43,654 nt of DNA, filler included, from Jimgerdemannia flammicorona (GCA_003990765.1; 2 parts of 2 records of this genome joined end to end with filler, not necessarily neighbours in it), one strand, 5' to 3'; shown: positions 3,476-37,331, numbered from the whole stretch's first letter. Numbers and translations are program-made. Notes: generated from the sequence alone by a model not told the origin.

Positions 3476-4907
3476 TTTGATCTCAAGGATTGTCTGAAGG
3501 TACAAATTATATTCTCCAGTCTCTTCATTGTAGTTGAAGTAATTGGGAGTGAATGCAGATTGGTACTCATACCAGTGGTCATTGTCCCATTAGGTCTTAT
3601 AGGTGGTTATGAACTGTTGTAAGTTCATCAGTAAAGTTGGTGGGATAATTAGGGTTGGTAGGGATCTTTGGCTTGAGATTATGTCAGCATCAGAGGGATT
3701 GTTGTCTTCTGCTTCATTATTGTCAAATTGAATTATGTCATAGATATTCTTCATGGTATATCTAACTTGGAACATTTGCAGGATGTAGTCATCAGGGTGT
3801 AGGAAGGTTCTGTCTATAGTCTGAACATACTCAATGTACTTGTGGTTGAGTTTTTGTATCATATCATCAATTTGGCTATAGGATAGAGTGGCAATAATAT
3901 TGACAGTAGTAACTCAGAGGCAGGGAATAATAGTGCTATACTCATAAAAGAGTTCTCAGTATTTGCAGATAATAAGCTTCTAGTATTGAGATATCTGAAT
4001 AATGTCTGTATCATACTATATCTTCTAGAAGGCAGCCAATCTGGTAGTAGCTTGAGATTTGTCTGATTCAGTGGGCCTTGTTAAGTATATTCAAAGTATT
4101 CCATCAGGTTTCCATAAAGTAGAGGGGTACTAGACTATAGATATTTATGAGGGGCAGAGGGAGTGTGGCTCAGTTGATAATGATATTCCAAATATCAGTA
4201 TGGATCTGGTTGTAGATCTTGATGGTCATGTTTATATATATATTCAGAAGTTGGGATTGTTTGTTTGGTTTGTTGTAGTTCTCTATTTTGATACATCTTA
4301 ATGCTCAGTATATATGCATTTGGTCCTGATTAGTAAAATTTTATTTGTATAAATCTTGTATTCTGTGACTTCAAGTTGGCTCAGCTTTGTATACTATGAC
4401 TTTGGTTTGACTCAGCTTCATGATCTTGCAGGTGATTTTCAGATTTGTTTAGAAGTTACATGTGATTTCAGTGACTTGTTCAGAGGGTGATATATAATTT
4501 CAGTAGCTTAGAGGTTATATACTTACAATTCTCTCCTTCTTAGCTTTTGATATCCTCATTGAGGCCTTCTAGTATTGTTACACTATTTGGATGGTCAAAA
4601 GTCCAGTAAGGTTCATTTTTTCAGAAAGTAGCATACTTATAGTACAGTTGCCTAACATATTAGATTTACATATTAAAGAGTTATGTATTTGATACTATAT
4701 ACTAGAAGTAATTCTGACATCATTCACTACTGAAGAATTTCCTCTAAAGAATCTTCTTAAATGTCTATACCTTATTTTCCATCAGTAGTATGGAGAGAAT
4801 AGGCTTGCTTTCAGTTTTGTTATTTTCCAGAGAGTTGGTATTCTTTTATATATTTGATCTTGATTAATAAGACTCTGTTTTTGTAAATCTTATATTCTGT
4901 GACTTTG
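3476..4907 (-). mobile_element. Family A copy A2 remnant: partial 3' LTR (3476-4527), PPT, 3' internal region (to ~4846) and a short LTR fragment (~4847-4907)
   Basis: cttaca terminus at 4527 followed by attctctccttcttagc (PPT complement). 4528-4846 matches 6956-7290. 4847-4907 matches the LTR interior at ~3258-3320. Confidence 0.75.
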
Positions 4908-6955: not shown

Positions 6956-7386
6956 ACTCTCCCCTTCTTAGCTTTCAATGTCCTCATCGGGGCCTTCTAA
7001 TTTGTTCTAGTATTGTTATACTATTTGGAATATCAAAAGTCTAGTAAGGTCCATTTTTCTCAGAAAGTGGTATGCTCATAGTATAGTTGCCTAATGCATT
7101 GAATTCATATGTTAAAGAGTAATATATTCAATGCTATGTACCAGAAGTGATTCTGATGTCATTTATTACTGAAGAATTTCCTCTAAGGAATCTTTTTAAA
7201 TATCTATGTCTTGTTTTCCACCAGTGGTATAGAGAGAATAGGCTTGCTTTCAGTTTTGCTATTTTTTTTTTTTTAGAGGGTCAGTATTCTTTATTTTGTC
7301 TTGCTGAGTTCTTGATTTTGTTCATGATAATTATAATGTTTGGAAGGATAATATATAGTATGTACTGATAGATGCAGAATATTCAG

Positions 7387-10300
7387 TTAGTTGTTCAAGG
7401 AATCATATTCCTAAACTAAGTCAGTAGCATTCTGGAGATTAGTCTTGGGTTCCTAGGTTGCATTGTGGATTGGATAACCTTTTTATTTGACAAGATACTC
7501 AGGGTGATTCTTGTGGCCATGTTTGTTGAGGATTTGTTCAACTTTGTATTCTTCTTGATCATTAATAATGATAGGTACAGGTGGTTCAGTGGTCTGGTTT
7601 GGAAATAGCTCATCATTATTTTCATTGTATTACTTGAGATTTTAGACATTAAAGACTGGGTGGACCTTAATGGTATCTAGTAGTACTAATTTATAGGAGG
7701 TCAGAGAGACTTGTGCAATAACTTCAAATAGTCCAATGAACTTACTGTTCAGCTTTGTAGATAGTCTGTACTTGAGGTTGTCAACTTAGTATCCTCGGAT
7801 GTCCAGTAGAACTTTTTCTCCAATATCAAAGGTTTCTTCTTGGCAGTATTGGTTAACATACTATAACTGTTGTTCTTGAGCTTGTAATAAATTCTCAATT
7901 GCGATCTGGCTTAGATTACACATTCAGAGCAGGAATTCTTCAACAGCTTTGACTGTAGAGGGTTCATCAGTAGTTCAGATAAGTGTCAGAGGGGTGTTTG
8001 GGTTTTGTCCAGTGTTGGTGAAGAATGGGGTCATTTCAAGAAAGGCTTGCTTACTATTGTTATAGGCAAACTCAACTGTAGTGAAGTATTCATATCAGTC
8101 ATCTTGTCTATAGGAAACATAGTTCCTTAGCATTTGTTCTAGAGTTCGGTTCATTCTTTCAATTTGGCCATCAGTTTCAGGGTGAAAGACTGTAGATAGT
8201 GTGAGTTTCATTCTAAGGTATGTATAGAGGGCTTTCCAAAAATGGCTGGTAAATTTCAGGTCTCAGTCACTAATAATGATTTTAGGAAGACCATGATAGT
8301 AGAAGATATTGTCTAACAAGAGTGTGACTATGTCTGGTGCTATTGCGGTAGTAGTAGTTAGTATGAAGTGAGCTTATTTACTGAGATAATTTATAAAGAC
8401 AACAATTGCATTTTTCCCATTCTTGGTTCAGGGTAGTTATATAATGAAGTCTATAGAGATTTGTTCCCAATTAGCAGATAGTACTGGAATAGGGTGGAGT
8501 AGACCAGGTTTTGCAAGTATTGAGGACTTGTTCTATTGGCAGGCATCATAGGAAGTAATGTAGATCTTTAGCTGATCTGCCATACAGGGCCAATAGAAGT
8601 TTCAGGAGATAACTTCATAGTATTTGTCAAATCCTAAATGTCCAGCTGTAGGGGCATCATAATATTCAAATAGGATAGTCCTCTGGAGGTCTCAGTTGTT
8701 TGGGACATATAGTCTGTCCTTATAGTAGATAACATTATCCTTGAGTTGGTAATGGTACTGAGTATACTTGTCAGCATCATCACTATTCAGAATTTCTCAG
8801 AGTGTTTGAGCTTCTTATCATCAGCATATGCTGTAATGATTTGTTCTATGATAGAGTTTGTAACCAGAGTGAGTGTTTGGATAACTTTGTCAATCAGTGG
8901 TCTTGAGATTGCATCAGCAACAATATTTTCCTTACTAGAGTGATACTGGATTTCATAGTTAAAGTTGGTGAGGACTTTTATCTATCTGGCTTGCTTTCAG
9001 GAAAGAGTAGCCTGGGTCTTGATATTGACTAATAACTTGTGGTCAGTCAATACAGTGAAGTATGCTCCTTCTAGGTATAGTCACCACTTAATCAGAGTGT
9101 CTATGATGGCTAACATTTCCTTCTCATGGATTACATAGTTGATTTCAGTATCATTGAACTTGCAGGAGTAATAGGTGACTGGGTGTCCTTCTTGTATGAG
9201 TACTTCTCTAAGAGCTAGGTCAGAGGCATTAGTAGTGACTTCATATGGTAGAGCAGGATTTGCCACTTGAAGTACTGGAGTGGTTATCAAGGTATCTTTC
9301 AATACTTGAAAGGCTGTATCTTGTTTGGCTCCCCAATTTACAAGATTGTTGAAGTTTTTTTTTTGTTTTGTGGTCCAGGACTGTTCTTCTTTCTTGCTGT
9401 ACTTGGTTATTTAGATGAGAGCAGTGGCAATTTTGGCAAAGTTGGCAACAAATCACCTGTAATATATAGTTTGCTAATTTCAGGAATAACTAGAGGTCTT
9501 TCAGCCTTTTGGGTCTAGGCCAATCTTTGATTGTAGAGATTTTGCTGAGATCTACTTTGATTCCATTTGGTGTGATAATGTGTCTAAGGAATTGAATTTC
9601 TTTCAAGAGAAATTCACACTTGCTGAGTTTTGCAAAGAGTTGGTTTTCTCGAAGTTTCAGTAGTACTAGTTCAAGATGTTCAAGGTGTTCCTCCAGGGTT
9701 TTGCTGAAGACTAGGATGTCATCAATGTAGACAATAATGAATATATCTAGGTATGGGTGCAGAATGATATTCATCAGTATCTGAAAGATTGCAGGAGTAT
9801 TAGTTAAGCCAAAAGGCATAACCAGGAACTCGAAGTATCCATAGCAAGTTTAGAAGGCTGTCTTATAGATGTCTTCTTCTTTCATAGCAATTTGCCAGTA
9901 ACCATTTTATAGATCAAAAGAGCTCATGAATTGCAAGTTGGTGAGTCTATTGAATATTTTATTGATTCTGGGTAGTGGACAACAGTTCTTGATGGTCTAT
10001 TCATTGAGGTCTCAGTAATCAATACATATTTGTAGGTCTTCTCCTTTCTTTATAATGAAGAGGACTGATACACTATAGGGTGATATACTGGGTCTGATGA
10101 AGCCTTGTTCTAGGAGCTTATCAATTTCCTTCTTGAGTATATCAATTTCTCTCAAAGATATATGGTAGATTGACTTGAAGGCTGGCTTGGCATCTGGAAT
10201 GGTCTTGATGGTATGGTCTACTGCTCATTTAGGAGGTAGGCCTTTTGGGAGTTTCTTTGGGAATATGTCTTGAAATTTCTGAAGTAGGGGTCTGACATGG

Positions 10301-10860
10301 CTGTCAACTTTGGAAAAGTCTTCTTCAGCATTCTGGAGTTCTCTTTTGGAAGAGCAGATGGAGATAGCAAAGAGAGAGCATTTTTTGGCTAATTTTTTGA
10401 GTTATAACTTATTGATGTAGGTGATCTTTGGTCCAGAGTCACTAAAACTGAGTAGGTCCCTTTCACCTTAAAGTTTGAAGTTGTGGTATCCTTTCTTGAT
10501 GGTCAGAGAATAGTTTACTCAATCAATCATAGAGTTCTCTTATTTCAACCATGGGGTTCCAAGAATGATCTCATTATCAGGAAGTGGTACAATCTGAAGG
10601 GTAATATATACTTAGTAGTCACCAATTCAGAAGGGCAGATTGCGGACTTCTTTATTAATAACATGTGAGGTTCTATCAGCTATAGCAACTGCTTGAGTTT
10701 GTTATACTGGAGAGATGAAGATCTTGAGTCTGTTGGCTGTTTCTTTATTGATGAAGTTGCCTGAGACACTGCTGTCTATCATAATCTTAACAGGTGCTCA
10801 ATTGACAAAAGCTTGAAGTGTAAGCAGTTTGTCTGATCCAATGGTGGTGATTTTGGTTGT
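7387..10860 (-). pseudogene. pol: pol (aspartic protease, RT, RNase H, integrase, chromodomain), many stops and frameshifts
   Basis: Protease MIDSSVSGNFI...ILGTPWLK; RT MPFGLTNTPAIFQ...VYIDDILVFS; RNase H EVTTNASDLAL...EKEMLAII; integrase region with [19 protein letters not shown]; chromodomain EYKVEQIL...EYLVK*KGYP...AT*EP..NL. Stop at 7387-7389. Confidence 0.9.
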
Positions 10861-11044
10861 AGGAGTTTTCCTTCTATTGGTTCTTCTTTGAGCCAGTTCA
10901 TTGATACAAGAGAAGCAATCATCAATCATTCAGAAAGAGTATATCCCAATACTATAGGAATATCAGCCACTCAGTATATATCTATCTTTGATCTTCTTAT
11001 AGAATTATTCTTCTTTATTTATGGTAGGTTGGGCTAGGGCCTTG

Positions 11045-11455
11045 CTTGATGAGCCAAATTCTTTGGATCCTCGAATGGTAGGTAGTAGTTCAGAGACTTC
11101 CTTGACTGTCAGAGTTGACTCGATTTTTTCAAATAGGATCAGAAACCAATGGGGATCTTGAAGAGTATCCAACTGTGGTTTCAGATAAGGACAATAATTT
11201 TGCCTGTATAATCTTCATCAATGACTCCTTCTTCTACTGAGAGTTCTTTTAATGCTAGGCTGCTGCAATAGCATATTCTTCTAACATATCCTTCAGGAAT
11301 TTGGATACTGATTCCTGTATAGACTTTCTTGACTTCTCAGTTAGAAACTATAGCTTCTTTGGCTATATACAGGTCATATCCAGCTGCCTTTTAACTTTCT
11401 TTGGTTGGGGCCTTGGCAGTTTGCCTTAACTTGATAAAGTCCAGTGTTCTGGTAG
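11045..11455 (-). pseudogene. dUTPase domain between gag and protease
   Basis: Translation gives KAAGYDLY, TGISIQIPEGY, SSLALK, GVIDEDYTG and RGSKEFGSS, matching the five dUTPase motifs in order. Confidence 0.85.
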
Positions 11456-12395
11456 TCAGGTTATTGAGGTAGTGCAGAGTAGTAACAGTTACTCATGTTG
11501 CTGTTTGGGGTTTTCAGTTGGGGCAGACACTGGCTATATGTCCTGTCTTTTGGTAATAGAAGTAGGCTCCACTTCTTCAAAGTTCATTCCTTTCTCCTTC
11601 AGTGAGTTTCTTGAAGGTATGTACTTGGCTGGGTGGGTTCATAATTTCTGGGTATCCATGAGGTAGATGTAGAGGGAGCTCAGAATACTTTATGCTTGGG
11701 TTCTTCTTTCTTGATCTAAGTCTTTTTCTTGTTGTTGAATTGTCTTCAGGGCAGAATTGGTCTGGCTATTAGGATTTGCTTGACCATAGTCTTGATTCTT
11801 GCCAGATACCATTGTTGGTGATCACAACTGACTGGGCAGCCTTGTTCTTGGATTTTTCTAGTAAGTCATTCAGGTAGAGCATTGAATAAATGATCTGCTC
11901 TTGTACTATTTCATGCTTCATCATTGGCAATATATTCTAGACCAACAGTGTTCAGGAGTGACTTGAGTTTTATATAAAAGGTTTCAAATTCTTCCTTGCC
12001 ATGTATATTGAATTTGAGGTTGCAGAGTTTTACTCGAGATTCAGCAATCATGATTTTACTACAGTATTAGGCAATCATGAGTTGTTTGAGTCTAGAGGCT
12101 GCAGGATAGGCTCCATATCCTGGGGCATTATTTGCTGCATTCTGAGCAACTACTGTAGGTCAGGTGTCCCATGTGAGGGGTTTTTCAGAAAGGGTTCACC
12201 ACTATTCTTTAGCAGGTCCTCAGAAAAATATAACAACTCAGCAGACATAGGCTGTAGTTGTAGCAAAGAGTTGTTCCAGAGTGTGGTCTTGATTGTTTGT
12301 CAGAAGTAGTGCTCCAAATAAATGGAGTTGATCTGGATGAGATTTGATTCAAGTTCATCATATGATGGATTTGAATCAACTCAGATTAGTCTTGT

Positions 12396-12535
12396 GATCT
12401 GATCTGGATTGATCTGGATTGATCTGGATTGATCTGGATTGATCTGGATTGATCCATCTGGATTGATTCATCTGGATGATCCATCTGGATTGATCCATCC
12501 AGATGATCCATCTGGATTGACCCATCTGGATTGAA
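12396..12535. repeat. Subterminal tandem repeats (gatctggatt / gatccatctggat units)
   Basis: Directly visible 10-14 bp tandem units. Mirrored in copy 2 at ~37150-37245. Confidence 0.85.
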
Positions 12536-13458
12536 ATCTTTGGTGAAATCTTTGGTGACATCACCCTTTCTTTTGTTCATTTCACTCTTGTTTTTTTTTT
12601 CCTACTGCACTTTGGTGATATCACTCTTTCCTTTGTTCCCTCTCTTTTCTTTATTCTTTTTCTTTATTCTTTCCTACTGCATTCACGAGCAAACAGAACA
12701 GCAGCTCTTAATTTGTACATTGGTCCAGTCTACTCATTTTTCACTCTGTAATAATCATCAAAAGAGGGAGTATTCAAGGTGGAAACACACTCTCTGCTGA
12801 TAATGTTAGATTTTTTCTCATATGGGCAGCACACAGGCTGCTTATTGAGGGCCAAAGGAGTGACAGCGGTGACAATGGTGGGGATGAGGGTGAATTTCAG
12901 CAACAACTCATGGCGGCCCTTCAGACCTTGGAATTCACAGACCTCATAGCTATGTATATAGCAGCCTTTTTGGAGTAGCTGGTAGTAGATGTAGGTTGCT
13001 CTTTTCTACTGCTACTTTTGTTTAAATTCCTCCAGCATGACCTGATTCACCTCATGCTCTTCTTAGGGTCCACAGCTCTATAGCGAGATCTGCTGACTTT
13101 ATTTGCAACATTTGGTCAAGATGAAGAAAGGTTGGAGGATGTTACAGGGCATGTCTTTGGTGGCTGAGCTGTTGAGTCAATGTATCGCATGACAGAGGTC
13201 TTAAAAGGAACAGAAGCAAGCCTTTGTAAGCAATCTTGTGCAACTCGTTAGTGTGCAACTCATCGATATGCAGCTCACTCACTCACTCACTCATGCTCTT
13301 TTTCTGAAATACCCATCTCCATGTTTTATTTAATTTCATTTTTTACATGGTCTCCCCCTAAAAAACACCCATACTGCACACAATCCACCTACATGCAAAT
13401 CACCCACACACAATCCATCCACATACAACCCATCTATACACTTATCTCAGTCTCTCAG

Positions 13459-14706
13459 ATCAGGGCTCAGTTCCATTGGAAAGGAGAGTTCAAAGTTACC
13501 CAAGTCTAACCACATCTGGTATCTGATCAAATAGAGAAATTCAAGGGCAAGATGTTTAGCATAAGCAGTACCAGCATTGTTATTAAGGCTTGGGGGTCTA
13601 CATTCGAATCAGAGCCAATTGTTCTCGACCAAGGGGTCCATTGGCCAGCAGGAGTAATCAACGATAAAGAGAACCATATCTTTATTAATGAATGTGGAGA
13701 GGTGGTTGTGATGGTGGTAAGGAATCTCTACGGTGACAAGCTTCACTGCCACATCAATGAGATTTGCGAGGACTGCATCAAATACCAGGTGGCAGGAAAG
13801 AGGGGGTGAAAAAGCAAGGAGGGGGGGTTTGGACAGGAATTGGGTATACTGCAATACTGACAAAGGGTGGATTCTGGAGTTCCAAAATCCCTTACACTTA
13901 TCTCCCTTTTTTTTACTCCTTCCCAGATAAATCATACTCTTCACCAACATACTCTTTTTTGATACAAATCCAGGGATATACAAGATTCTATACTCCTACC
14001 GGAACTTTAGAAGTACTATTGAAGAGCAAACTGTATGCAAGCATGACATAGCCTGTGCAGTGATGGTGGCTATGATCTGGGGTTCTTTGAGCAGATTGGT
14101 AGAGTGTACAGCAGACCAGCTTGGTGGTGATCTCAGTGTGGCTGTATGTGTATTCTTGGCACAATTTAGTATGCTATATGAGGTGAGGAGCTCCACTTTT
14201 TTGGGGTACTGCAGCCTGGGGGGTTTCTGCAGCCTGGGGGGTTTCTGCCCCCCCACATGCAAAAAGGACTGACTGGTTGCTATCTGTTTTGGCAGGTTTC
14301 CAAGCCAGGGCTCCTGGGACTGGACTAAGAGCAGGCATCTACCAGCATAGTCTGGTAGTATGAGGTCCTGGGCCAAGGGTTCACCCAACCATATGCTTAC
14401 ATCATATCAGAATATGTCAGGTGCAACCTTTCTCTGCCCACACACATAGACAACAATGTTACTTCAGTAATGTTTTACATTCTGGAAAGGAAGGGCCCAA
14501 CCTGGGAGGATAGTGGCAGAGTCTGGTATGACCTCACCTATGGTTTCAAGATCCCATTTGCAGCCAACATGGCCATCCTCTTCCAACCACATGACCACCA
14601 TGGCACCGTCACCTTCAAGGAGAGCTCAGACACAACAGTCATTGCACTCACAATAGATGATAGGCTCATCAAGGCCTGGGACCGGTGAGTGGAGCAGTTT
14701 TTGTGA
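13459..14706 (+). pseudogene. TET/JBP-like 2OG-Fe(II) dioxygenase, intron-containing (copy 1); may have further exons upstream to ~12720
   Basis: Exons ~13459-13866, 13927-14182 and 14296-14706 with GT..AG introns in phase 0. The last exon reads ...YVRCNLSLPTHIDNNVTSVMFYILERKGPTWEDSGRVWYDLTYGFKIPFAANMAILFQPHDHHGTVTFKESSDTTVIALTIDDRLIKAW, with HxD, a distal His and double-stranded beta-helix-like spacing. Confidence 0.72.
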
Positions 14707-14984
14707 GAGTTAGGCAATCTTTCATAAGGGATAGGCAGTCTTTCATGAGGGTTAGGCAGTTATTTTGTGTAGGTTGGGCAGTCTTATATAGGGGATTGGG
14801 CCAGGCACCTCTTCTGTAGCCCTAGTTTAGCCATTATACAGGGCCCTACTGGCCCCTTGGCCCATGGGACCCAAACCAGTGATGGGGCCCAAATCTGTGA
14901 TAGACTTCGACTGCCAGAAATGCCCTCCAACCACCAGAAGCACCCTTCAACTGCCAGAAGCACCCTCTGCCCTGGACTCCTTGG

Positions 14985-15625
14985 CGGCTTGGGGCTGCCC
15001 CTATGCTGCTGGCAGAGGGCCACAAATTTTGTACACTCCCTCCACCTGCCCTGCCCATTCTGGATACTTGCGGTTTAGGGCTGCCCCTTGCTACCAGTGG
15101 AGGGCCACAAACTTTGCACATACCCTTGCTGACCCCATGCCCACCAACCCCACCCACTGACCTGGGTGCTGACAGCTTAGGGCTACCCCTCACTTCTGAC
15201 AGAGGGTCACAAATTTTGTATGCTCCCTCCACCTGCCCTGCCTGTCCCAGATACTTGCGGCTCAGGGCTGCCCCTTGCTGCCAGCAGAGGGCTGCAAATT
15301 TTGCACACTTCCTCCACTGACCCCATGCCCACCAACTCCATCGACCAACCCTGCCCACTGACTCAGGTGCTGACAGCTTAGGGCTACCCCTCACTGCTGG
15401 CAGAGGATTGTAAGTTTTGCACACTCCCTCTACCAACCCCCCTGACCAGGACACTTGCAGCTTGGGGCTGCCCCTTGCTGCCAGCAGAGGGCTGCAAATT
15501 TTACACGCTCCCTCCACTGACCTGCCCACTGATCCACTCACTGACTCAGGCACTGACAGCTTGGGGCTACCCCTTACTGCTGGTGGAGGGCCACAAACAC
15601 TGCATGCTCTCTCTGCTGCTACTGC
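14985..15625. repeat. GC-rich array, 7 copies of a ~57-bp unit with alternating linkers, between the convergent genes
   Basis: Unit gcttggggctgccccttgctgccagcagagggccacaaattttgcacactccctcc, at ~14987, 15073, 15177, 15260, 15376, 15460 and 15559. Confidence 0.85.
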
Positions 15626-15769
15626 CAACCCCGCTGACTGCTGCCCACTTGGACCACAAACTCTGGGCTGAGTCCTCAGGGTTTTTGCCTTTTTATTATT
15701 TTTTGAAAGATATTAAATATTCTACAAGGCCAACTAACTTATCTGTGAACCCCCAGGACCTGCTGAATT

Positions 15770-18348
15770 TTAGCGGCCTGAGCCCCACCAAGATTTCAGA
15801 TACATATACTCAGATTATTTCAGCATTCAGCATACATCTCTTTGGGGCAATGAGGTCCACCCCACCTAAGAACACCCACTCGACAGGAGCACTGGAGACA
15901 GGAATCACCAGATAGTCTCAAGCCATACCACACAGGCTGGGGAAGTCTATTTGACACAGCTGCATACCCCAGTAGGTAGAGCGATGGGTAGAGCAGTGGC
16001 TAGATTGGTGGGTTAAATTGGTTCAATACCCACCTGACAACCTATCTTCTACCAGTTGAGTACCTCCGTGCCCTCCAGCAGGATCACATGGTCACTAATA
16101 AGGTAAATGGTAAGTTTGTCTATTGATGGCAGCTCTTCCACTGATGGCTCCCTCTTCTTCTTTCTGCTGAAGTAAATGTGGGACAGGAGGGATCCCTCAG
16201 TATATTCGTCCAGACTTCGGCTGGAACCTTGTGGTAGCATGTAGTTTTTCTAGTATACTTCGATTACAGCCTACTTGATTCTCTCAATAAAGTGCTGCTC
16301 CCAGCCCTGATCTTTATAGTATTGTAGCTTTAAGCATGGGTCCAGCACTGTTCAAAGGAGAGGAGAGAGTGAGTTTTTGTGGGGATTTCTCTGTTTTGGA
16401 AGGGGCAACAGCTATACACTGACATCAACATTGACATACCTATACTGATTGAGTATATGGCAGTATCTGTTTGAGAGTAGTACTTTCTGAGCTTGCTAAG
16501 AGCAACCTTCATGATGTCTCTCTGATCCGGGCTCAACCATAAATCACCACAACCCTCCAGCCTATTCTCAAGCTTGTCCTCTAACTGGTCAATCAGAAGG
16601 TTGTATACTGGTATTGCCAAGCTTATTGTTGGGGTCATTTGTTTGACTATATCCTTCATACAATCATCAAAACACTGGCAGTTATATGTAGTGAGGTGTT
16701 GTATTGTGCAGAGGTAGACAAAATGAGTGCAGAGGCTGACAAAATGAGTGTGGAGCCGGAGCAATCACCACTTACTTCCAAAACTCTGACAACATTCCTA
16801 AGTACATCCCACTCACTTTCACCTAGAGCCTTGGCCTGTATTTCCTTGTCGGCAGCTACTGTTGAATCTATTGGCTTTTTTTGTTTTTTTAAAATAAATC
16901 TTCAATCATCCAAAATAAGTTGCTTCAGCTGACTGAAGAAAAAAAGGATGTATACTACAGCAAACTCTAGCACATGCTGGATTATTGCAAATGTTGAGTT
17001 CCAACATGTACAGATGTCCAATATAAGCTCTTTCAGGGCTAAACTGATTGCCCTATACTGTGCAACAAATTTGTCTTGTCATTGTAGGGACAATCAGACC
17101 AACACAATCAGGTTGCACAGCTTGGAAATTATACTCAGGACCCCTCCTCTCTTGGATGTTTTGTCTATGTGTGTAAGATAGTCCTGAACAGTGAGGTTCA
17201 GTACATGGGCCTGGTATCATATATGGCAGCTTTCTATACTGAAGGCCACATTTTTCCGTTTGAGGCTAGCAACTAAAACTTTGAAAAATATTGAGTTATT
17301 TGTGGTATTGTCCATCATAATAGCCAAAATCTGTACTTGAAATATTCAGTCAGTGAATTTATGTGAAAATAAATAACCAATAAAATCTGGTTTGGTTTAG
17401 GACCTCTCTCAAAACCTTTTTTACCTTGGTGGTGATCCCAAGCTCCCAGATACAACTGATAAAAGCATCTGCAATATTGTCTCCAGAATGAGGGCCAGCA
17501 AGTTTGATGAAGTCAAGGGTGAAAGATTTAAGCTGCCAATCGAGGTCAATCCAATGACCGATAATGCCCAAAAATAAAATTGTATTGGGAGATGTCCATG
17601 TATTGATCATAAATGAAATTTTGCCTGCCGAATTCTGCTTATAGAATGTGAGGTTAAATTGGTGAGCTCTTTTATATAATTCAGCTTGCAAAGGTCATGG
17701 TGCTGCCCTTATTTTATCTGAAGTATTTGGTGGAGATTATCATGTTCCTTTCTATAGGCCTCCAGGACATCTTTGCGAATAATATCAGTACTTGGCAATA
17801 TAAATCATGCTTGAGGAGGCCAAAGATGCTATGCAATTGATCACTCTCAATGGTTGTGAATAGCTGGTTTGTGCATACAATCTAGCAAATAAGCTGATTT
17901 CAAAATTCTACTGAAGAGTATGGCTAAATATTTTTGATTAAATGGCATTGTTGGTATAGAAATAGTTGGGCAATCAGATAAATGTACCCACCACAGCTTG
18001 GATGTCAATTTTATTTATCTCTGTGTTCTTTTTGATTTTGTCAAAGTACTTGTCTTTTATATGTCAATTTATGTTCAAAGTCATACTCCCAAGCATTTTG
18101 AACTTCTGGCTGGTGCAGTTCATGGGGGTGGATAAAACAATATCATGTGTATATCAAAACAAACAAAAAGTGTCAATAGGTGCATCTCAATTTTTTACCT
18201 GCAATAATTACAAATAACATCATCTCCTATCTTAATACAATGTTGCCAGATTTCAGAGTGAGGATTGTGTGGAAGGTGTGGAGCTATCAGAGATATTTGA
18301 CTTGAAACATTATTGGTACTGTGAACTGTTGAAGACTGATCTGTCAAT

Positions 18349-18350
<2 letters not shown>
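15770..18350 (-). pseudogene. hAT transposase (BED finger, DDE, C-terminal dimerization domain), about 8 introns, degenerate
   Basis: SEIWQHCIKIGDDVICNYC (BED); KISFMINTWTSPN..FLGIIGHWID; QAHVLNL; CWNSTFAII; VLDPCLK; VLNW; IPVSSAPVEWVF. Stop at 15770-15772. Confidence 0.88.
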
Positions 18351-18353
<3 letters not shown>

Positions 18354-18411
<58 letters not shown>

Positions 18412-18424
18412 GTCTCTTGGACTG
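18354..18424 (-). mobile_element. Minimal poly(A)-tailed insertion (16 nt + A55) with 16-bp TSD; non-LTR/TPRT signature
   Basis: gatctgtcaatatgta (18338-18353), T55, atagtctcttggactg, gatctgtcaacatgta (18425-18440). Only one copy of the target is present at the empty site in hAT copy 2 (~31326-31341). Confidence 0.8.
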
Positions 18425-18519
18425 GATCTGTCAACATGTATGTTTGCATGTTTGCGTATACATGTGTGTGCATGTGTGTGTGTATTGTGTTGTGGATGCA
18501 TCTGGTATATGAGTCATGT

Positions 18520-18810
18520 AGAGGATTTGGATTGGAGGATTCAGTTGAAGGATTCAGATGAGGATTCGGATTGAAGGATTTGAATTGGAAGATTCAAATT
18601 GGAGGATTCAAATTGGAGGATTTGGATTGAGTGATTCAGATTGAGTGATTTGGATTGAGTGATTCAGATTGAGTAATTTAGATTGAGTGATTCAGATTGG
18701 GGTAGTTCAGATGGGTAATTCAGATGGGGCAATTTAGATAAGTTGATTCAGATGGCTTTGGATTTGAGATTCAGATCAAACCATCATGTGATGAATCAAA
18801 TCCAGATTTG
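18520..18810. repeat. Subterminal tandem repeats at the transposase-side end (ggattgagtgattca, gaggattcaaattg units)
   Basis: Visible 14-15 bp tandem units. Mirrored in copy 2 at ~30900-31228. Confidence 0.85.
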
Positions 18811-19671
18811 ATTCGAATTGACTTGTTCAGAGCACTAGTTAGAAGGCAGTCAGCAACTCACTCATTGGTCCATTAATTGGCTTTGAAGTTGGTGTCAACT
18901 ACACTAATGAAGCTTTGGACTTCTTGTATAGTACCATTGAAGGTAGGTAGGCTCAGATTTTTGGTAGGTCAGGTCTGTTTGACTAAGGCAGTAATAGTTG
19001 CTGCCATTATTGCTACCTGGGCTGTGAGGTCTAGAATCTGTTGGTTTGTCATATTGTTTGCTGGAGGCAGTTGGAGTGCTGGTAGTGGTATTACTAGTAC
19101 TACTTGAGATACTGGTGCAGAGTGTGATGGGGTTCTATGGATCTGTATAAGTTGCTGGAGTAATAGTTGTAGATCTGGAGTAAGAGCTCGATAGATAGCT
19201 GTCTGTTGCTGTATAGGTGTGTTCTGTCCTGATGGAGGTGCATCTCCTTCAGTGGTATATCTGAGATTGAATTCACTGAGATACTCCTCCTCCTCTTCAG
19301 TTTGGTCCCTGTGTAATTGGGTTTGCTCAGCATCAAAGTAGACAGAATTAGTTGTATATCTGATTTTGGATGGACTTAATTCAAAGTTAAGTTCTGGTTT
19401 GGTATTGGTTTCAGGTTCAGGTAGGGCTATAGCTGGGCCTGCTTCTGGTTCAGGGTCAGGTTGTTGATGGAGAGTTTCTCTTGCTTCTTCCTTAAGAATA
19501 TGGCAGGTCTTGTAATTCTGAAACTGGTAGTATAATGTGGTCTTGGTCTGAGTGTGGTGAAAATCAGTGGAGTTGAGCCACTTGGCTACAGAGGCTTGGG
19601 CTTTGTGAGGGACTAAGGCTAGAAAGACTGCTGATGGTTGTCCTAGATCACTCAGATTTATAGAGCTGACA

Positions 19672-20076
19672 GGCAGATAGTATTGAGTTAATCCTTGAGA
19701 GCTTGCTTGATCTCTTCAGTATAGTATGTTGTTCTGAGGAAGGCCTTCATGTTGACAAGTTTGGCTACACCATTATTGGCAATAGTGGCTGTATTGAACT
19801 TGTCTCTAGCAGGTCCTCTGAGGCTGACTGGTAGAAGAGTCAATTGTGCATCTATACTAAGGGCTCATATAGCAGCAAATTGTTCAAAGTCTTCAATAAA
19901 GATCAGAATTGACTCTTCAGTAGTATATCCATAGAATGTGGGAGACACATTTCCATCTTATCTTGAATTATTGCAGGAGTGGCTCTTATAGTCAGAGTAG
20001 TTATTGTGGAGGTTGTTTGTTTTTTAGCTTGAAAGTGAGGAATTTGTCTTGAATTACCAGCTAATGAGCACTAAGT
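19672..20076 (-). mobile_element. Family B 5' internal fragment: PBS and gag N-terminus
   Basis: PBS-like TAGTGCTCATTAGC (mutated TGG) 3 nt inside LTR-B. Gag-like PTFYGYTTEESILIFIEDFEQFAAI*ALSIDAQLTLLPVSLRGPARDKFN...LKD*LNTI. Confidence 0.65.
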
Positions 20077-21582
20077 TATTATATATATAGTGGTCACTGA
20101 GTCCTTCAAATACACCAGATTCTCTTCAAGGTGTATCTCTTAGACTAACTCAAGTTTGTTATAAGTAAGTTCTTATTGGAGTATCTTCCCAAGATCTTAT
20201 AGTTCTCAAACTTCTTATCTTTAAACTGTCTTGTTATCTCTTAGATTGCTTGTAAGAGATTGTATATATTGTACTGAGTTGACTAACTTTATTTCAGAGG
20301 AAATAAGAGGGGTATTTATACAAAATATAATTCAATAGTTGCTAAGATATAAAGCTAAATATAAATTTCAATAACTAAAATAAAATACCAGGACAGGAAA
20401 AACTACTAAGTTCCAGGGTCAGTACTGATGGTTGTATAGGTTCAGGATGCTGGTATAATTCGGTATTATATCAGAATACCAGTACTGGCATTATTCAGTA
20501 TAATCAAGAGACTTAGAGCAGAATGTTCAGGACTATGGGGGCTTCATCATCAGAGATCAGGATATCTTCAAAGGAGATGAGGTCCATGAATTCATCATCA
20601 TTGCACGTTTTACATACTTCATTATGTATCTCATATATGTTATGTGAGATGACATCATTGCTGATGATGTCATCATGTTCAGCAGTAAGAAGAAGGTCTG
20701 GTACTCTCCAGTCTATGAGGTTCTCTTCCACAAAATAGGGAACAAATGTGGGGTCTTGGGGAGGTCTAACCTGGATGCTTGGGTCTTAGAATACTGAGAT
20801 CAATCCTTGTAGAAATTGGTCTGGGTTGTCCTGAAAGATGGGATGCTAGAAGTCTTCTACTTTATCACTATTGAGGGTGATAGTAGACTGGGCTTCTATA
20901 GCTACCCTGACTTCTAGTACATTGATATGGTGAGATGACAGGTCTCTGAAATCTGAGACTCTAACATACTCCAAGTTGGGGATTGACCATGGTACATGCC
21001 TGAAGATCTGATAGATCTTCTTAGCCATTCTTGCCTTATATATATTCATAAAAGTGGTATCTTGTAGCTCTTGAGAGCTGGCCTGTGGGAACTCCTGGCA
21101 GAGGAGATTTCCTATTTCATACTTCTACCACATTTGGAGGCATTTGGTAGCAATGGTGATTCTTGTTTCCATTTCATAGCAGTAGAGGATATAGTGATAA
21201 GGGTCACCAGTATCCAGGTTGATACTAGGAGTCCTTCTTGAGTGGGTCCTTATGGCTCTTCTGATGTCTTGGAACATCCTCTCTTCAACTGAGATACCTT
21301 GGTAGTTCCTTGATCTTGAGGTTTGGCGAGCAGTAGGTATTTCATTTGTGGTAAGTCTTTGAGCTATTTTGAGATTGGTGGGTCTTGTTGGTTGCTGCTA
21401 CTGCAGTTCCTTAATTCTTCTTTTATATTCCTCAGGATGCTTATACTATGGTTACAATAACTCATAGTTGGTTATTATTGCTCATCTCATATACTGTATA
21501 ATCTTCTTGTACTTCAATCTGGTGGCTTGTAAGGAAAGACTGTCTTCTGTGCTAATGTTATCATTCTGGGGTCACTGTTACA
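20077..21582 (-). repeat. Family B LTR (5' LTR, ~1.5 kb) containing a degenerate U3 ORF (20513-~21580)
   Basis: tgttaca terminus at 21582 is shared with the copy ending at 25705. TATAAATA box on the minus strand at ~20313-20320. Adjacent PBS. Confidence 0.8.
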
Positions 21583-30875: not shown

Positions 30876-31328
30876 TAGTGCTCTGAACGAGTCAATTCAA
30901 ATCAAATCTGGATTCAATTTGTCACATGACAGTTCGATCTGAATCTCAAATCCAAAGTCATCCGAATCAACTCAGATTAATCTGAATTGCTCCATCCGAA
31001 TCACCCCATCCGAATTGACCCATCCAAATCACCCATCCAAACTACCCCAATCCGAATCATTCAATCCAAATCACTTAATTCAAATCACTCAATCCAAATC
31101 ACTCAATCCGAATCACTCAATCTGAACCCTCCAATTCGAATCCTCCAATTTAAATCCTCCAATTTGAATTCTCCAATCCAAATCCTCATCCAAATCCTTC
31201 AACTGAATCCTCCAATCCAAATCCTCCACATGACTCATATGCCAGATGTATCTACAATACATTACACACACATGTATATACAACACACACACATGCACAT
31301 ATATGCACATGCAAACATACAAACACAT

Positions 31329-33893
31329 ATGTCGACAGATCAGTCTTCAACAGTTCACAGTACCAATAATGCTTCAAGTCAAACATCCCTGATAGTTCCA
31401 TACCTTTCATGCAATTCTCACTCCGAAATCTGGCAAGATAGGAGATGATGTTGTTTGTAATTATTGCAGGTAAAAAATTAAGATGTACTTATTGACTTGT
31501 TTGACATACATATGATATTATTTCATCCACCCCCATAAACTGCACCAGCCAGAAGTTCAAAATGCTTGGTGGTATGACCTCGAACATGAATCGATATATA
31601 AAAGACAAGTACTCTGACAAAATCAAAAAGAACATGGAGACAAATAAAATTGACATCCAAGCTGTGGTGGGTACATTTATCTGATTGTCCAACCATTTCT
31701 ATACCAACAATGCCATTTAATCAAAAATATTTAGCCATACTCTTTGGCAGAATTTCGAAATCAGCTCATTCACTGGATTGTATATATAGACCAGCCATTC
31801 ACAACCATCAAGAGTGATCAATTACATAGCATCTTTGGTCTCCTCAAGCATGATTTATATTTGCCAAGTGCTGATACTATTCATAAAGATGTCCTGGAGG
31901 CCTATAGGAAGGAGCACGACAATCTCTGCCAGACACTTCAGATAAAATAAGGGCAGTACCATGACCTTTGCAAGCTGAATTATATAAAAGAGCTCACCAA
32001 TTTAACCTTACATTTAATAAGTAGAATTCAGCAGGCAAAATTTCATTTACAATCGATACATGGACATTCCCTAATGCAATTTCATTTCTGGGCATTACTA
32101 GTTATTGGATTGACCTCGATTGGCAGCTTAAATCTCTCACCCTTGACTTTGTCAAACTTGCTGGCCCTCATTCTGGAGACAATATCGCAGATGATTTTAT
32201 TAGTTGTATCCAGGAGCTTGGGATCACAACCAAGGTAAAAAAAGGGGGGCTTGCCATCAGGTCAGCATTTTGAGGGAGGTCCTTAAACAGAACAGATTTT
32301 GTTGGTTATTTATTTTTGCATAATTCGCCAACCGAATATTTCAAGTACAGATTTTGGCCATTATGACGGACAATGCCACAAATAACTCAACATTTTTCCA
32401 AGCTTTACCAGCCAGCCTCAAACAGGAAAATGTGGCCTTTGGTGCAGAAAGCTACCATGTGCAATGCCAGGCCCACGTACTGAACCTTGCTGTTCAGGAC
32501 TATCTTACACACATAGACAAAACATCCAAGAGAGGAGGGGCCCTGAGTATAATTTCCAAGCTGTGCAAACTGATTGTGTCAGTCTGATCATCCCCACAAT
32601 GATGAGACAAATTCGCTGCACAGTGTAGGGCAATCAGTTTAGCCCCGAAAGAGCTTATATTGGACATCTATACATGTTGGAACTCAACATTTGCAATGAT
32701 CCAGCATGCACTAGAGTTTGCTGTGGTATGCATCCTTTTTTTCTTTGGTTGGCTGAAGCAACTGTTTCGGATGATAGAAGATTTATTTTAAAAAATTAAA
32801 AAAAAAAAAAAAGCCAATAGATTCAATGATGGCTGCCAACAAGGAAATATGGGCCAAGGCTCTAGGTAAAAGTGAGTGGGACATACTTAGGAATGTTGTC
32901 AGAGTTTTAGAAGTAAGTGGTGGTTGCTCTGGCTCTACACTCATTTTGTCTACCTCCACACAATACAACACCTCACTACATATAACTGCCAGTGTTTTGA
33001 TGATTGTACAAAGGATATAGTCAAACAAATGACCCTGACAATAAGCTCTGTGATACTAGTATATAACCTTCTGATTGACTGGCTAGAGGATAAGCTTGAG
33101 GATAGGCTGGAGAGTTGTGGTGATTTACAGTTAAGTCCAGATCAGAGAGATGCTGTAGAGGTTGCTCTAAGCAAGCTCAGGAAATACTACTCTCAAACAG
33201 ATACCGCTGTATACTCAATCAGTACTGGTATGTTGATGTCGGCATGTAGCTGTTGCCCCTTCCAAAACAGAGGAAATGCTGCAAAAACTCACTCTCCTTT
33301 TCTTTGAACAGTACTAGACCTATACTTAAAGCTACAATACCATAAAAATCAGGGCTGAGAGCAGCACTTCATTGAGAGAACCAAGTAGGCCATAATCGAA
33401 GTGTACTGGAAAAACTACACACTGCTGCAAGGTTCTGGCCGAAGTCCGGACGAATATGCCAAGAATTTCCTCTTGTCCTACATTTACTTCAGTAGAAAGA
33501 GGAAGAGGGAGCTATCAGTGGAAGAGCTGCCATCAATAGATGAACTCACCATTTATCTCACCAGCAACTGCATGATCCTGCTGGAGGGCATGGAGGTGCT
33601 CAACTGGTGGAAGGTGGGTTATCAGGTGGGCATTGTCAGGCAGGCATTGGGCCAATTTAACCCACCAATCTAACCACTGCTCTACCCACTGGGGCATGTA
33701 GCTGTGTCAAACAGACTTCTCCAGCCTGTATAGTATGGCTTGGGACTACCTGGCAATTCCTGCCTCCAGTGCTCCTGTCGAGCAGGTGTTCTCAGATGGG
33801 GTGGACCTTGTTGCCCCAAAGAGGTGTGTGCTGAATGCTGAGACAATCCAGGTGTGTATGTATCTGAAGTCTTGGTGGGGCTTGGGCTGCTAA
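31329..33893 (+). pseudogene. hAT transposase, intron-rich, degenerate (copy 2)
   Basis: BED CNYC...TSNMNRYIKDKY; FTIDTWT (first D); IMTDNATNN (second D); CQAHVLNLAVQ; WNST; MAWDYLAIPASSAPVEQVFS (E); CMYLKSWW. An 11-nt deletion at ~31436 frameshifts the BED exon. Confidence 0.88.
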
Positions 33894-34044
33894 AATTCAG
33901 CAGGTCCATGGATAAGTTAGTTGACCTTGTGGAATATTTAATACCTTTCAAATTAATACCTTTCAAAATAATAAAAAAGGAAAAAAAAACCTGAGGACTC
34001 GGCCTGGAGTTTGCAGCCCAAGTGGGGTGGGGTTGGCAGCAGCA

Positions 34045-34472
34045 GCAGAGGGAGTATGCAATATTTGTAGCCCTCAGCCAGCAGCAAGGGGTAGCCCTAA
34101 GCTGCCAGTGCCCGGGTTGGTGGGCAGGTCAGTGGGTCGGCAGAGGGAGTATGCAAAATTTGCAGCCCTCCGCTGGCAGCAAGGGGCAGCCCCAAGCCGC
34201 AAGTGTCCAGGTTGGGGGAGTAGGCAGAGGGAGTGCGCAAAATTTGTGGCCCTCTGCCAGCAGCAAGGGGCAGCCCCAAGCTGTCAGCGCCTGGGTCAGT
34301 GGGTGGGGTCAGTTGGCGGGTTGGCAGGTGCAGAGTCAGCAGAGGGAGTGCACAAAATTTGCGGCCCTCCACCGGCAGCAAGGGGCAGCCCCAAGCCGCA
34401 AGTGCGGGGCAGGCAGAGGGAGCATGCAAAATTTGTGGCCCTCTGCCAGCAGCATAGGGGCAGCCCCAAGCC
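34045..34472. repeat. GC-rich ~57-bp unit array, 5 copies
   Basis: gcagagggagtgcgcaaaatttgtggccctctgccagcagcaaggggcagccccaagc at ~34046, 34140, 34224, 34339 and 34413. Confidence 0.85.
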
Positions 34473-34752
34473 ACCAAGGAGTCCAGGGTGGAGGGTGCTT
34501 CTGGCAGTCAGAGAGTGTTTCCAGCAGTTGAAGTCACTGGTTCGGATCCCACGGGCACCCCAGCCCTGCACTGCAGCACCGCACCGGTGGCACTACAGAG
34601 CAGGGCCAAGGGGCCGGTAGGGCTCTGTATAATGACTAAGCTAGTGCTACATAAGAGGCGTCTGGCCCATATAAGACTGCCCAACCTGTACAAAATAGCT
34701 GCCTAACCCACACAAAATGGCTGCCTAACCCTCACAAAAGATTGCCTAACCC

Positions 34753-35982
34753 TCACAAAAACTGCTCCACCTGCTGGTCCCAGGCCTTGATGAGCCTATC
34801 ATTCATTGTGAGTGTGAGAACTGTTATATCCAAGCTCTCCTCGAAGGCAATGGTGCTGTAGTGGTCATGTGGTTGGAATAGGATGGCTGTGTTGGCTGCA
34901 AACGAGACCCCAAAACCATAGGTAAGGTCATACCAGACTCCACCACTGTCCTCCCAGGTTGGGCCCTTCCTTTCTGGGACATAAAACATTACTAGGGTGA
35001 CATTGTTGTCTGTGTGTGTGGGCAGAGAAAGGTTGTGCCTGACGTATCCTGATGTGATGTGAGCATATAGTTGAGTGAACTCATGGCCTAGGACCTCATA
35101 CTGCCAGGCTGTGCTGGTGGATGCCTGCCCTTAGTCTAGCCCTGGGAGCCCCAGCTTGGAAACCTGCCGAAATGGATGGCAACCAGTCAGTCCTTTTTGC
35201 ATGCAGGGGGACAGAAACCCCCCAGGCTGCAGCACCCCAAAAAAGTGAAGCTCCTTACCTCATATGGTATACTAAATTACACCAAGAATATATGTACAAC
35301 CGCACTGAGATTACCACCAAGCTGGCCTGCTGTACGCTCTATCAATCTGCTCAAAGAACCCCAGATCATAGCCACCATCGCCACACAGGCCGTGTCATGC
35401 TCGCATGCAGTTTGCTCTTCAATGGCACTTCTAAAGTTCCAGTAGGGGTACAGAATCTTGTGCATCCCTGGAATTGTATTGAAAAGAGTATGTTGGCAAA
35501 GAGTGTAATTTATCTGGGAAGAGGTTAAAAAAAGAGAGATGAGTGTGGGGGATTTTGGAACTCTGAAACCCACCCTTCGCCAGTGTTGCAGTATATCCAA
35601 TTCCCGTCTAAACCCCCCCTCCTTGCTTTTTTTGCTCCCTCTTTCCTGCTACCCAGTATTTGACACAATCCTCACAAATCTTATTGATGTGGCAGCAAAG
35701 CTTGTTACCATAGAGGTTCCTTACCACCATTGCAACCACCTCTCCATATTCGTTAATAAATATATAGTTCTCTTCATCATTGGTTACTCCTGCTGGCCAA
35801 TGGACTCCTTGGTTGAGTATGATTGGCTCTGATTTGAATGTAGACCCCTAAGCCTTGATGACAATGCTGGTACTGCTCATGCTGAACATCTTGCCCTCAA
35901 ATTTCTCTATTTGATCAGACACTGGATGTAGTTGAACTCAGGTAACTTTGAACTCTCCTTTCCAATGGAACTGAGCCCTGAT
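34753..35982 (-). pseudogene. TET/JBP-like 2OG-Fe(II) dioxygenase (copy 2)
   Basis: ...YAHITSGYVRHNLSLPTHTDNNVTLVMFYVPERKGPTWEDSGGVWYDLTYGFGVSFAANTAILFQPHDHYSTIAF...RLIKAWDQQVEQFL*. Introns gtgggt..cccag and gtaagg..ctgac..cggcag. Confidence 0.72.
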
Positions 35983-36002
35983 CTGAGGGACCAAGATAAG
36001 TA

Positions 36003-36262
36003 TGTGGATGGGTTGCATGCAGACGGGTTGTGTGTGGGCGGGTTGCGTGTAGGTGGGTTGCATGCAGGCAGGTTGCATGCGAGCAGGTTACGGGCAGATT
36101 GCATGTGGGTGGGTTGCATGTGGGTAAGTTGCATGCGGGTGGGTTACATACGGGCAGGTTGCATGTGGGTGGGTTGCATGCAGGTGGGTTGCATGTAGGC
36201 AGGTTGCATGTGGGCGGGTTGCGTGCAGGAGGGTTGCATATGGGCAGGTTGTATGTGGGTGT
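36003..36262. repeat. 15-bp minisatellite (gggtgggttgcatgc-type), ~17 units
   Basis: Directly visible. Only ~5 units at the equivalent site in copy 1 (~13368-13440). Confidence 0.85.
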
Positions 36263-37331
36263 GGGTGTTTTTTAGGGGGAGACTACATAAAAATGAAATT
36301 AAATAAAACATGGAGATGGGTATTTCAGAAAAAGAGCATGAGTGAGTGAGTGAGTAAGCTACATGCTGATGAGTTGCACACCAACAAGTTGTATACCGAC
36401 AAGTTGCACGAGTTGCACAAGATTGCTCACAAAGGCTTACTTCTGTTCCTTTTGAGACCTCTGCCATGCGATGCATTGACTCAACAGCTCAGCCACCAAA
36501 GGTATGCTCCGCAACATCTGCCAGCCTTTCTTCATTTTGACCAGATGTTGCAAATAAAGTCAGCAGATCTCACCGTAGAGCTGTGGACCCTAAGAAAAGC
36601 ATGAGGTGAATTTGGTCATGCTGGAGAAGTTTAAATAAACACAAGTAAACAAGTGGTGGCCAAGTGAACAATCTACATCTACTATCAGCTACTCCAAAAA
36701 GGCTACCACATATATAGCTGTAAGGTCTGTGAATTCCAAGGTCTGAAGGGCCACCATGAGTTGTTGCTGGAATTCTCCCTCATCCCTGCCATCACTATTG
36801 CATCACCACTACCACCGCCATTGCCCCTTTGGCTCTCGATGAGCAGCTTGTGTGCTGTCCATATGAGAAAGAATCTAACATTGTCAGCAGAGAGTGCATT
36901 TCCACCTCGAATACTCCCTCTTTTGACGATCATTGCAGGGTAAAAAATGAGTAGACTGGACTAATGTATAAATTAAGGGCTGCTGTTTTGTTTGCTTGTG
37001 ATGTGGCAGGAAAGAACAAAGAAAAAGAACAAAGAAAAGAACAAAAGAAGAGAGGGAGTAAAAGGAAAGAGTGATGTCACCAAAGTGCAGTAGGAAAAAA
37101 AAAAACAAGAGTGAAATGAACAAAAGAAAGGGTGATGTCACCAAAGATTTCAATCCAGATGGATCAATCTGGATGGACCAATCCAGATGGACCAATCCAG
37201 ATGGATCAATCCAGATCAATCTGGATCAATCCGGATCAGATCACGAGACCAATCCGAGTTGATTTGAATCCATCACATGACGAATCTGAATCAAATCTCA
37301 TCTAGATCAACTCCATCCATTTGGAGTACTA

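Follow-up and report, generated by a model that had tools for sequence, protein, structure and literature searches.

If transposons encode a counter-defence against DNA methylation, the TET/JBP genes that some of them carry are the best candidates for it. Kyakuja/Dileera/Zisupton and Plavaka transposons carry AG-type TET/JBP genes (Iyer et al. 2014, cited in PMC12730594), and CcTET of Coprinopsis cinerea is named in the same context. In December 2025, TET/JBP genes were described in seven transposon lineages of rusts, among them twenty TET-carrying hAT families, designated as 'hAT7', in six Puccinia species (Kojima 2025, Biology 14:1741, PMC12730594). In this study, we analyzed a stretch of 43,654 nucleotides from Jimgerdemannia flammicorona (GCA_003990765.1; two parts of two records joined end to end with filler), referred to below as the window. 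It holds two copies, A and B, of a 6.5-kb hAT transposon in which a second gene, the cargo gene, lies beside the transposase gene. We consider it likely that these copies are the remains of an old, dead autonomous hAT family that carried, tail to tail with its transposase gene, a complete gene of at least three exons for a TET/JBP-like protein.

According to Kojima 2025, TET/JBP genes of rusts, mushrooms and truffles pass from one transposon superfamily to another (PMC12730594). A literature search for further reports of hAT elements with TET genes found only this paper (PMC12730594). A preliminary description of the window, made from the sequence alone, had known of no hAT carrier; the publication of hAT7 of Puccinia in 2025 overtakes that statement and removes the novelty claimed with it (PMC12730594). 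A TET-carrying hAT is therefore already published, and the element in the window is a probable second hAT lineage of this kind, with a cargo of an H-x-D clade.

Results

Two copies of a hAT element

Copy A, one copy of the 6.5-kb element, spans 12307-18837 and ends in perfect 8-bp terminal inverted repeats (TIRs), TAGTGCTC and GAGCACTA. As shown in Table 1, it is flanked by the 8-mers GTCAGAAG and GTTAGAAG, which are identical at seven of eight positions. Two paralogous sites in the window carry this 8-mer singly, GTCAGAAC at 229-236 and GTCAAAAG at 29334-29341, and their flanks align to the surroundings of copy A on either side. These two uninterrupted sites are direct evidence that copy A was inserted with an 8-bp target-site duplication (TSD). 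The target sequence is itself a repeat (1-588, 12001-12306 plus 18838-19197, and 29035-29684; 76-91% identity), and its presence at least three times in the window is the source of both empty sites.

Copy B is collinear with copy A from end to end in the inverted orientation, and the two are 86.3% identical over 6078 aligned bases (MAFFT). The TIR 8-mer TAGTGCTC was found at three of the four element ends, and the fourth, the right end of copy B, reads TAGTACTC. Elsewhere in the window, TAGTGCTC occurs once, at 20066 (four matches in total against 1.5 expected). No clean TSD was found for copy B: its flanks, GTTACAGG and TATGTATT, do not match as a duplication, and the nearest TSD-like match (TATGAGTT), shifted 5 bp leftward, agrees at 6/8 positions. 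At 30857-30864, 11 bp beyond the left terminus of copy B, lies TAGCACTA, the reverse complement of a 7/8 TIR match, which could be an end remnant of another copy or could be due to chance. Subterminal arrays with the core ATCTGRAT lie inside both ends of the element in inverted orientation.

The transposase gene is a string of open reading frame (ORF) fragments on the minus strand of copy A and the plus strand of copy B, and it is full of stops in both. The hAT C-terminal dimerization domain (Pfam PF05699) was matched on the plus strand of copy B at E 1.1e-9 (38.4 bits; cutoff 21.4). Outside this region, the other transposase pieces gave no Pfam match, and a word-index homologue search with the transposase core against longer proteins found nothing. 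By eye, these pieces contain the hAT-like motifs TSPN…HWID, DNATNN, AHVLNL and CWNST, which are candidate parts of the RNase-H-like DDE catalytic core of hAT transposases. The short TIR consensus of hAT elements is YARNG, with which the element terminus TAGTG agrees. The assignment to the hAT superfamily is secure because the PF05699 match, the 8-bp TSD and the TAG termini occur together. The preliminary description of a hAT element bounded by TIRs and TSDs was thus borne out by the perfect TIRs of copy A, its 8-bp TSD with empty sites and the PF05699 match. Its count of two copies was confirmed by the collinear copy B, but only copy A has a clean TSD.

The cargo gene and its relatives

In copy A, the cargo gene is on the plus strand and the transposase gene on the minus strand, so that the two converge tail to tail; copy B has the identical layout. 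The left subterminal repeats lie on one side of the cargo gene and the transposase gene on the other. The cargo gene contains a long ORF with an H-x-D...H pattern (14359-14688 in copy A, 34753-35130 in copy B). We searched 1.84 billion representative proteins exhaustively with phmmer at E<=1e-3 and obtained eight matches. Five were true relatives, all of them unnamed metagenomic or Logan predictions: P0001 (4.1e-60, 78% identity), P0002 (8.9e-31), P0003 (5.4e-12), P0004 (8.9e-9) and P0007 (8.5e-5). The remaining three were judged spurious, as they were long proteins with short, low-complexity-like matched stretches. P0001 and P0002 are intact ORFs of exon c, the last exon marked in Table 1, belong to the same clade and come from other samples. 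A word-index search with the copy B exon against longer proteins found nothing, the same search with P0003 found one relative (P0023), and tblastn of P0003 against phage genomes gave chance matches only (E 7-9).

The uninterrupted P0003 (374 aa) was used to define the exons. In tblastn it matched copy B in three collinear blocks, residues 92-167, 167-227 and 234-345, and the same three blocks were found in copy A. The gaps between the blocks open with GT and close with AG in both copies. Metagenome loci were then scanned for homologues; a scan with the close-clade alignment gave 156 pattern matches, none of which was confirmed, and a second scan gave locus L001 and its near-twin L002. L001 carries an intact cargo homologue from an AT-rich eukaryote (34% GC, observed/expected (o/e) CpG 1.21), with introns GTAAGT..AG and GTGAGA..AG at the same positions as the two introns in the window. 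The two contigs (L001 1-3666, L002 1-2870) have short canonical introns and no CpG depletion, and P0004, from a cluster of 28 members, corresponds to a truncated prediction on the last exon of their homologue. The relatives, the collinearity with P0003, the GT..AG ends and the identically placed introns of L001 together show that the cargo is a real gene with introns and belongs to a small conserved family.

The earlier proposal of two convergent intron-containing genes therefore holds for the layout and for the two cargo introns, whereas introns in the transposase gene are plausible by eye alone. A cargo peptide that had been reconstructed by reversing CpG decay proved to be a fair consensus: P0001 reads ...LPTHTDNNVTLVMFYVPERKG...HGTVAFEESSDTTV...DDRLIKAW, which confirms most of the proposed reversals.

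Similarity of the cargo protein to TET/JBP-like proteins

We examined the cargo family in an alignment of eight members. The predicted iron triad H-x-D...H, which had also been noted before, has its first His in 8/8 members, its Asp in 7/8 and its distal His in 7/8; the exceptions are one Asn variant (HVN) at the Asp position and the decayed copy B at the distal His. Seven residues before the first His, an Arg is present in five of the eight members, and the other three have His or Cys, as CGC decay predicts. In ESM Atlas, the neighbour of the window exon at rank 3 (score 0.92, 183 shared features) was a cluster of Basidiomycota in which 72% of the members carry PF20515, named Tet-like 2OG-Fe(II) oxygenase (2OG, 2-oxoglutarate), and at rank 10 stood a phage cluster of PF12851 (Tet_JBP). 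With P0003, a Basidiomycota cluster with PF20515 in 15% of its members came first (score 0.96, 209 shared features), and a phage PF12851 cluster was at rank 11 (0.91).

PE-type proteins are transposon-borne TET/JBP-like proteins of Pezizomycetes and Agaricales, whose predicted structures are similar to those of CMD1, NgTET and CcTET (E<1e-5); their HHpred match is weak, E 1.4 (PMC12730594). We compared the cargo family by eye with the PE-type proteins given in Table S1 of that paper. The two are collinear motif by motif along the whole domain, and both are too diverged for Pfam. They have in common D-x-N-[YH]-I-F-[VI] followed by G-E-[IV]-V-x-M-V-x-R-N-[FL], where copy B reads GEVVAMVVRNL and the PE-type protein of Tuber borchii GEIVAMVYRNF. 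Also common to both are the S-A-G motif and [RK]-N-[FIL], an aromatic-rich helix ending in W/F-N/G, the T-H-x-[ED] motif, G-G-x-[FW]-[FY]-x3-Y-G-x-x-[IV]-x3-N-[ST]-x-[VI]-x-[WF]-x5-H-G-[TS], and T-x-x-R-L-[VI]-K. Between the GG and the distal HGT, P0001 and a Morchella PE protein are identical at 13 of 32 positions without a gap.

The cargo family also differs from the PE type as that paper describes it. The hallmark of the PE type is H-x-E instead of H-x-D (PMC12730594), whereas the cargo has HTD, HVD or HID in seven of eight members, HVN in one and HxE in none. Thr replaces the Arg of the PE motif SAGSRS, the loop after the SAG motif is longer, and the carrier is a hAT element, which is not among the five transposon lineages listed for the PE type (PMC12730594). 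AG-type proteins (N-R-x-T-P-x-H-R-D ... P-G-T ... H-G-V ... R) are quite unlike the cargo protein, and PU-type proteins are much less similar to it than PE-type proteins. Judged by these motifs, the nearest described relatives of the cargo protein are the PE-type TET/JBP-like proteins, from which it differs by H-x-D. These results, above all the collinearity with the PE type, give indirect support to a TET/JBP-like identity of the cargo protein.

CpG decay of the two copies

The window is strongly depleted of CpG (o/e 0.18; TG 1.11, CA 1.30; GC about 40%). Copies A and B differ by 760 transitions and 72 transversions in the MAFFT alignment. Among the aligned dinucleotides, 127 columns are TG<->CA, 86 are CG<->TG/CA, and only 8 CG are shared, so that about 340 of the 832 differences can be ascribed to independent CpG decay. 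The heavy methylation-type decay described earlier is therefore confirmed. The host is most likely a fungus of soil that methylates CpG in its repeats heavily. Among sequencing runs, one DNA run of a soil metagenome contained a 0.06 share of the sampled words, and no RNA run was listed. Depletion specific to TCG has been reported for Pucciniomycotina (PMC12730594). Hypermutation of this Puccinia type was rejected for the window, as the depletion extends to all four NCG trinucleotides (o/e 0.08-0.26) and is not confined to TCG.

Both cargo copies are pseudogenes. In copy A, a stop and a frameshift follow 13806, and exon c is interrupted by two stops. Each of the three exons of copy B contains one stop, and the distal His motif of this copy is decayed.

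Evidence against the proposed cargo and alternative explanations

Several results weigh against the reading of the element as a dead hAT with a TET/JBP-like cargo. No Pfam match was obtained at E<=1 or E<=10, whether with the window exons, with P0001-P0004 (full-length P0003 included) and P0007, or with the L001 exons; neither the PF12851 (Tet_JBP) nor the PF20515 (2OG-FeII_Oxy_6) hidden Markov model matched. This silence is explained by the weak HHpred result for the PE type (PMC12730594). A profile search of PDB sequences returned one chance match, TAF6 (E 0.96). AlphaFold2 models of P0003 from 13- and 24-row alignments reached a predicted local distance difference test (pLDDT) score of 38.7 and 43.8, respectively, and were unusable, and Foldseek with the first of them found nothing at E<=0.001. 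The likeness to the PE type was judged by eye and not from a computed alignment. The eight members share no conserved Arg after the distal His, as had been cautioned in the preliminary description, the later Arg of DDRL is present in 5/8, and the position of the SAGSRS Arg is Thr. Between copies A and B, the exons are no better conserved (83-87%) than the introns (83-90%), and the ratios of nonsynonymous to synonymous differences (pN/pS) of the three exons, 0.42, 0.28 and 1.32, are uncorrected for a tenfold transition bias, so that no sign of selection on the cargo was seen between the two window copies. Since the exons are not better conserved than the introns, most of the A/B divergence is neutral decay after insertion. 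The L001/L002 homologue has no recognizable transposase or TIR within 3.7 kb. Both copies in the window are dead, which argues against any current role there.

The best Foldseek values (E 0.024; GGCX, cupins, PHD) came from the low-confidence model and were not treated as evidence. The earlier TET/JBP-like assignment of the cargo is indirectly supported by the ESM Atlas neighbours with PF20515 and PF12851 and by the collinearity with the PE type seen by eye, but not by any Pfam match.

The algal protein CMD1 uses vitamin C as its co-substrate. The cargo protein could likewise have a TET/JBP-like fold with a chemistry other than 2-oxoglutarate-dependent oxidation of 5-methylcytosine, acting with another co-substrate, on thymine or 6-methyladenine, or as a noncatalytic reader of a mark. 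The two Arg positions that usually contact 2OG are not conserved, and Kojima 2025 allows for other activities of PU-type and PE-type proteins, with CMD1 among the nearest structures (PMC12730594). We regard this explanation as rather unlikely, as the Fe-binding triad is retained and the Arg seven residues before the first His, whose absence from three members looks like CGC decay, could serve instead. All these Arg assignments were made by eye and not from a structure.

Another explanation is that a host gene was captured passively, or inserted as a nested element, that it brought no benefit, and that the copies share it through one founder. It would agree with the single family and two copies that are visible, with the lack of evidence for selection between them, and with the L001/L002 homologue, whose 3.7 kb show no transposon features. 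However, this is a complete gene with its own introns, flanked by the left subterminal repeats and the transposase gene, and no convincing internal TIR pair bracketing it was found. The nearest described relatives ride on five other transposon lineages (PMC12730594), and other samples contain intact exon-c ORFs of this clade, P0001 and P0002. We therefore find passive capture very unlikely and favour the reading of an autonomous hAT family with a TET/JBP-like cargo gene of its own.

Table 1. Features of copies A and B of the element. Positions are counted from the first nucleotide of the window.
Feature	Position	Strand	Basis or remark
Left TSD, copy A, GTCAGAAG	12299..12306	.	8-mer single in two paralogues
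Left TIR, copy A, TAGTGCTC	12307..12314	+	
Left subterminal array, unit ATCTGGATTGATCC / TGATCTGGAT	12400..12534	.	Core inverted in right array
TET-like exon a, copy A	13510..13866	+	tblastn P0003 residues 92-151; stop 13807-13809, then frameshift; 5' limit unfixed
Intron 1, copy A	13867..13973	+	GT..AG, phase 1; L001 intron at same position
TET-like exon b, copy A	13974..14182	+	
Intron 2, copy A	14183..14295	+	GTGAGG..CAG, phase 0; L001 intron at same position
TET-like exon c, copy A	14296..14688	+	HID and distal His (HDHHGT); two in-frame stops near start
GC-rich ~100-bp repeat array between genes	14961..15622	.	Repeat family D10
hAT transposase remnant, copy A	15780..18300	-	Many stops; domains by eye
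Dimerization-domain remnant, copy A	~15780-15956	-	By eye; Pfam match on copy B counterpart
RNase-H-like core, copy A	17359-17694	-	By eye
BED-like CxxC stretch, copy A	~18210-18275	-	By eye
Right subterminal array, unit GAGGATTCAGATTG	18521..18755	.	
Right TIR, copy A	18830..18837	-	
Right TSD, copy A, GTTAGAAG	18838..18845	.	
Copy B, TIRs TAGTGCTC and TAGTACTC	30876..37331	-	Inverted relative to copy A; without clean TSD
hAT C-terminal dimerization domain, copy B transposase	33702..33893	+	Pfam PF05699
TET-like exon c, copy B	34753..35163	-	H-T-D intact; distal His decayed to HDHYST; one stop near start
TET-like exon b, copy B	35259..35467	-	One stop
TET-like exon a, copy B	35574..35880	-	One TGA stop; 5' limit unfixed

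Other features of the window

Several repeats lie within the element. The GC-rich array (50-58% GC) that separates the two genes at their stop ends has a counterpart at ~34048-34471 in copy B and yields long spurious ORFs, such as one of 288 aa on the minus strand at 14846-15712. Upstream of the TET-like exons, a tandem repeat with a 15-bp unit is present in at least 13 units in copy B (35987-36273) but only about 4 in copy A (13377-13432). In copy A, a run of 55 T occupies 18354-18408, close to the 5' end of the transposase gene, and the A/B alignment breaks there.

The window as a whole is a mosaic of eukaryotic repeats, and tRNA and Rfam scans of it gave no match. Larger blocks are duplicated about 17 kb apart, for example 8815-11920 and 25859-28954 (~80% identity). 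Some 500 bp separate the right end of copy B from a reverse transcriptase ORF (Pfam RVT_1, E 8e-20) at 37861-38316 on the minus strand, so that a retroelement adjoins this hAT copy. The GC content falls to 20% at 41001-43000, far under that of the rest of the window. Strong strand asymmetry extends across many kilobases of repeats at 1-12000 and 18000-21000 (GC skew +0.2 to +0.3, AT skew -0.1 to -0.2).

Discussion

In this study, we found what is probably a second, unrelated hAT lineage as a carrier of a TET/JBP-like gene. While the family was active, the cargo enzyme may have oxidized 5-methylcytosine, or another DNA base, on the DNA of its own element or on DNA nearby. This oxidation would have relieved methylation-based silencing at the transposase promoter. 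Since then, methylation and mutation have turned both copies in the window into pseudogenes. Such an anti-silencing role is inferred from the family resemblance and from the arguments of Kojima 2025 (PMC12730594) and earlier authors. The preliminary description had likewise proposed an anti-silencing or self-marking role; the two copies have themselves undergone heavy methylation-type decay.

The cargo clade is invisible to Pfam and to ordinary sequence searches, with five true relatives in 1.84 billion representative proteins. Together with the second hAT lineage, this cryptic clade suggests that current surveys underestimate how widespread the phenomenon is and how often it goes unseen. The element itself is of modest practical value, as both copies are dead. 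A more far-reaching interpretation is that the cargo represents a fourth, so far unclassified clade of transposon-borne TET/JBP-like proteins, similar to the PE type but with H-x-D and without the two 2OG-contacting Args, which used another co-substrate in the manner of CMD1 or made a different DNA mark, and which was captured independently by an Ac-like hAT with 8-bp TSDs in an unsurveyed fungal lineage. We consider this combination quite unlikely.

The closest described system is hAT7 of Puccinia, which is likewise a hAT transposon with a TET/JBP-like gene beside the transposase gene in a fungus that methylates its repeats (PMC12730594). On these common features, the element could be taken for a member of the hAT7 lineage with nothing new to it. 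We find this extremely improbable from the way hAT7 is described. Its TSD is 7 bp and it starts with CAACGGTGGG, whereas the present element has an 8-bp TSD and starts with TAGTGCTC. The TET gene of hAT7 is of the PU type and, in the cases described, lies upstream of the transposase gene in the same orientation, in contrast to the PE-like, convergent cargo gene found here. The depletion of all four NCG trinucleotides (0.08-0.26) also differs from that of TCG alone in Pucciniomycotina (PMC12730594). Because TSD length, termini, gene orientation and TET type all differ, the element probably captured its TET gene independently of hAT7.

The likeness to Kyakuja/Dileera/Zisupton and Plavaka lies in the principle of a 5-methylcytosine oxidase carried by a DNA transposon; their transposase superfamily differs from the hAT of this element. 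With Ac/Tam3-like hAT transposons, the element has in common the 8-bp TSD, short TAG TIRs, subterminal arrays and a C-terminal dimerization domain. Classical Ac/Tam3-like members encode the transposase alone, whereas this element adds a cargo gene.

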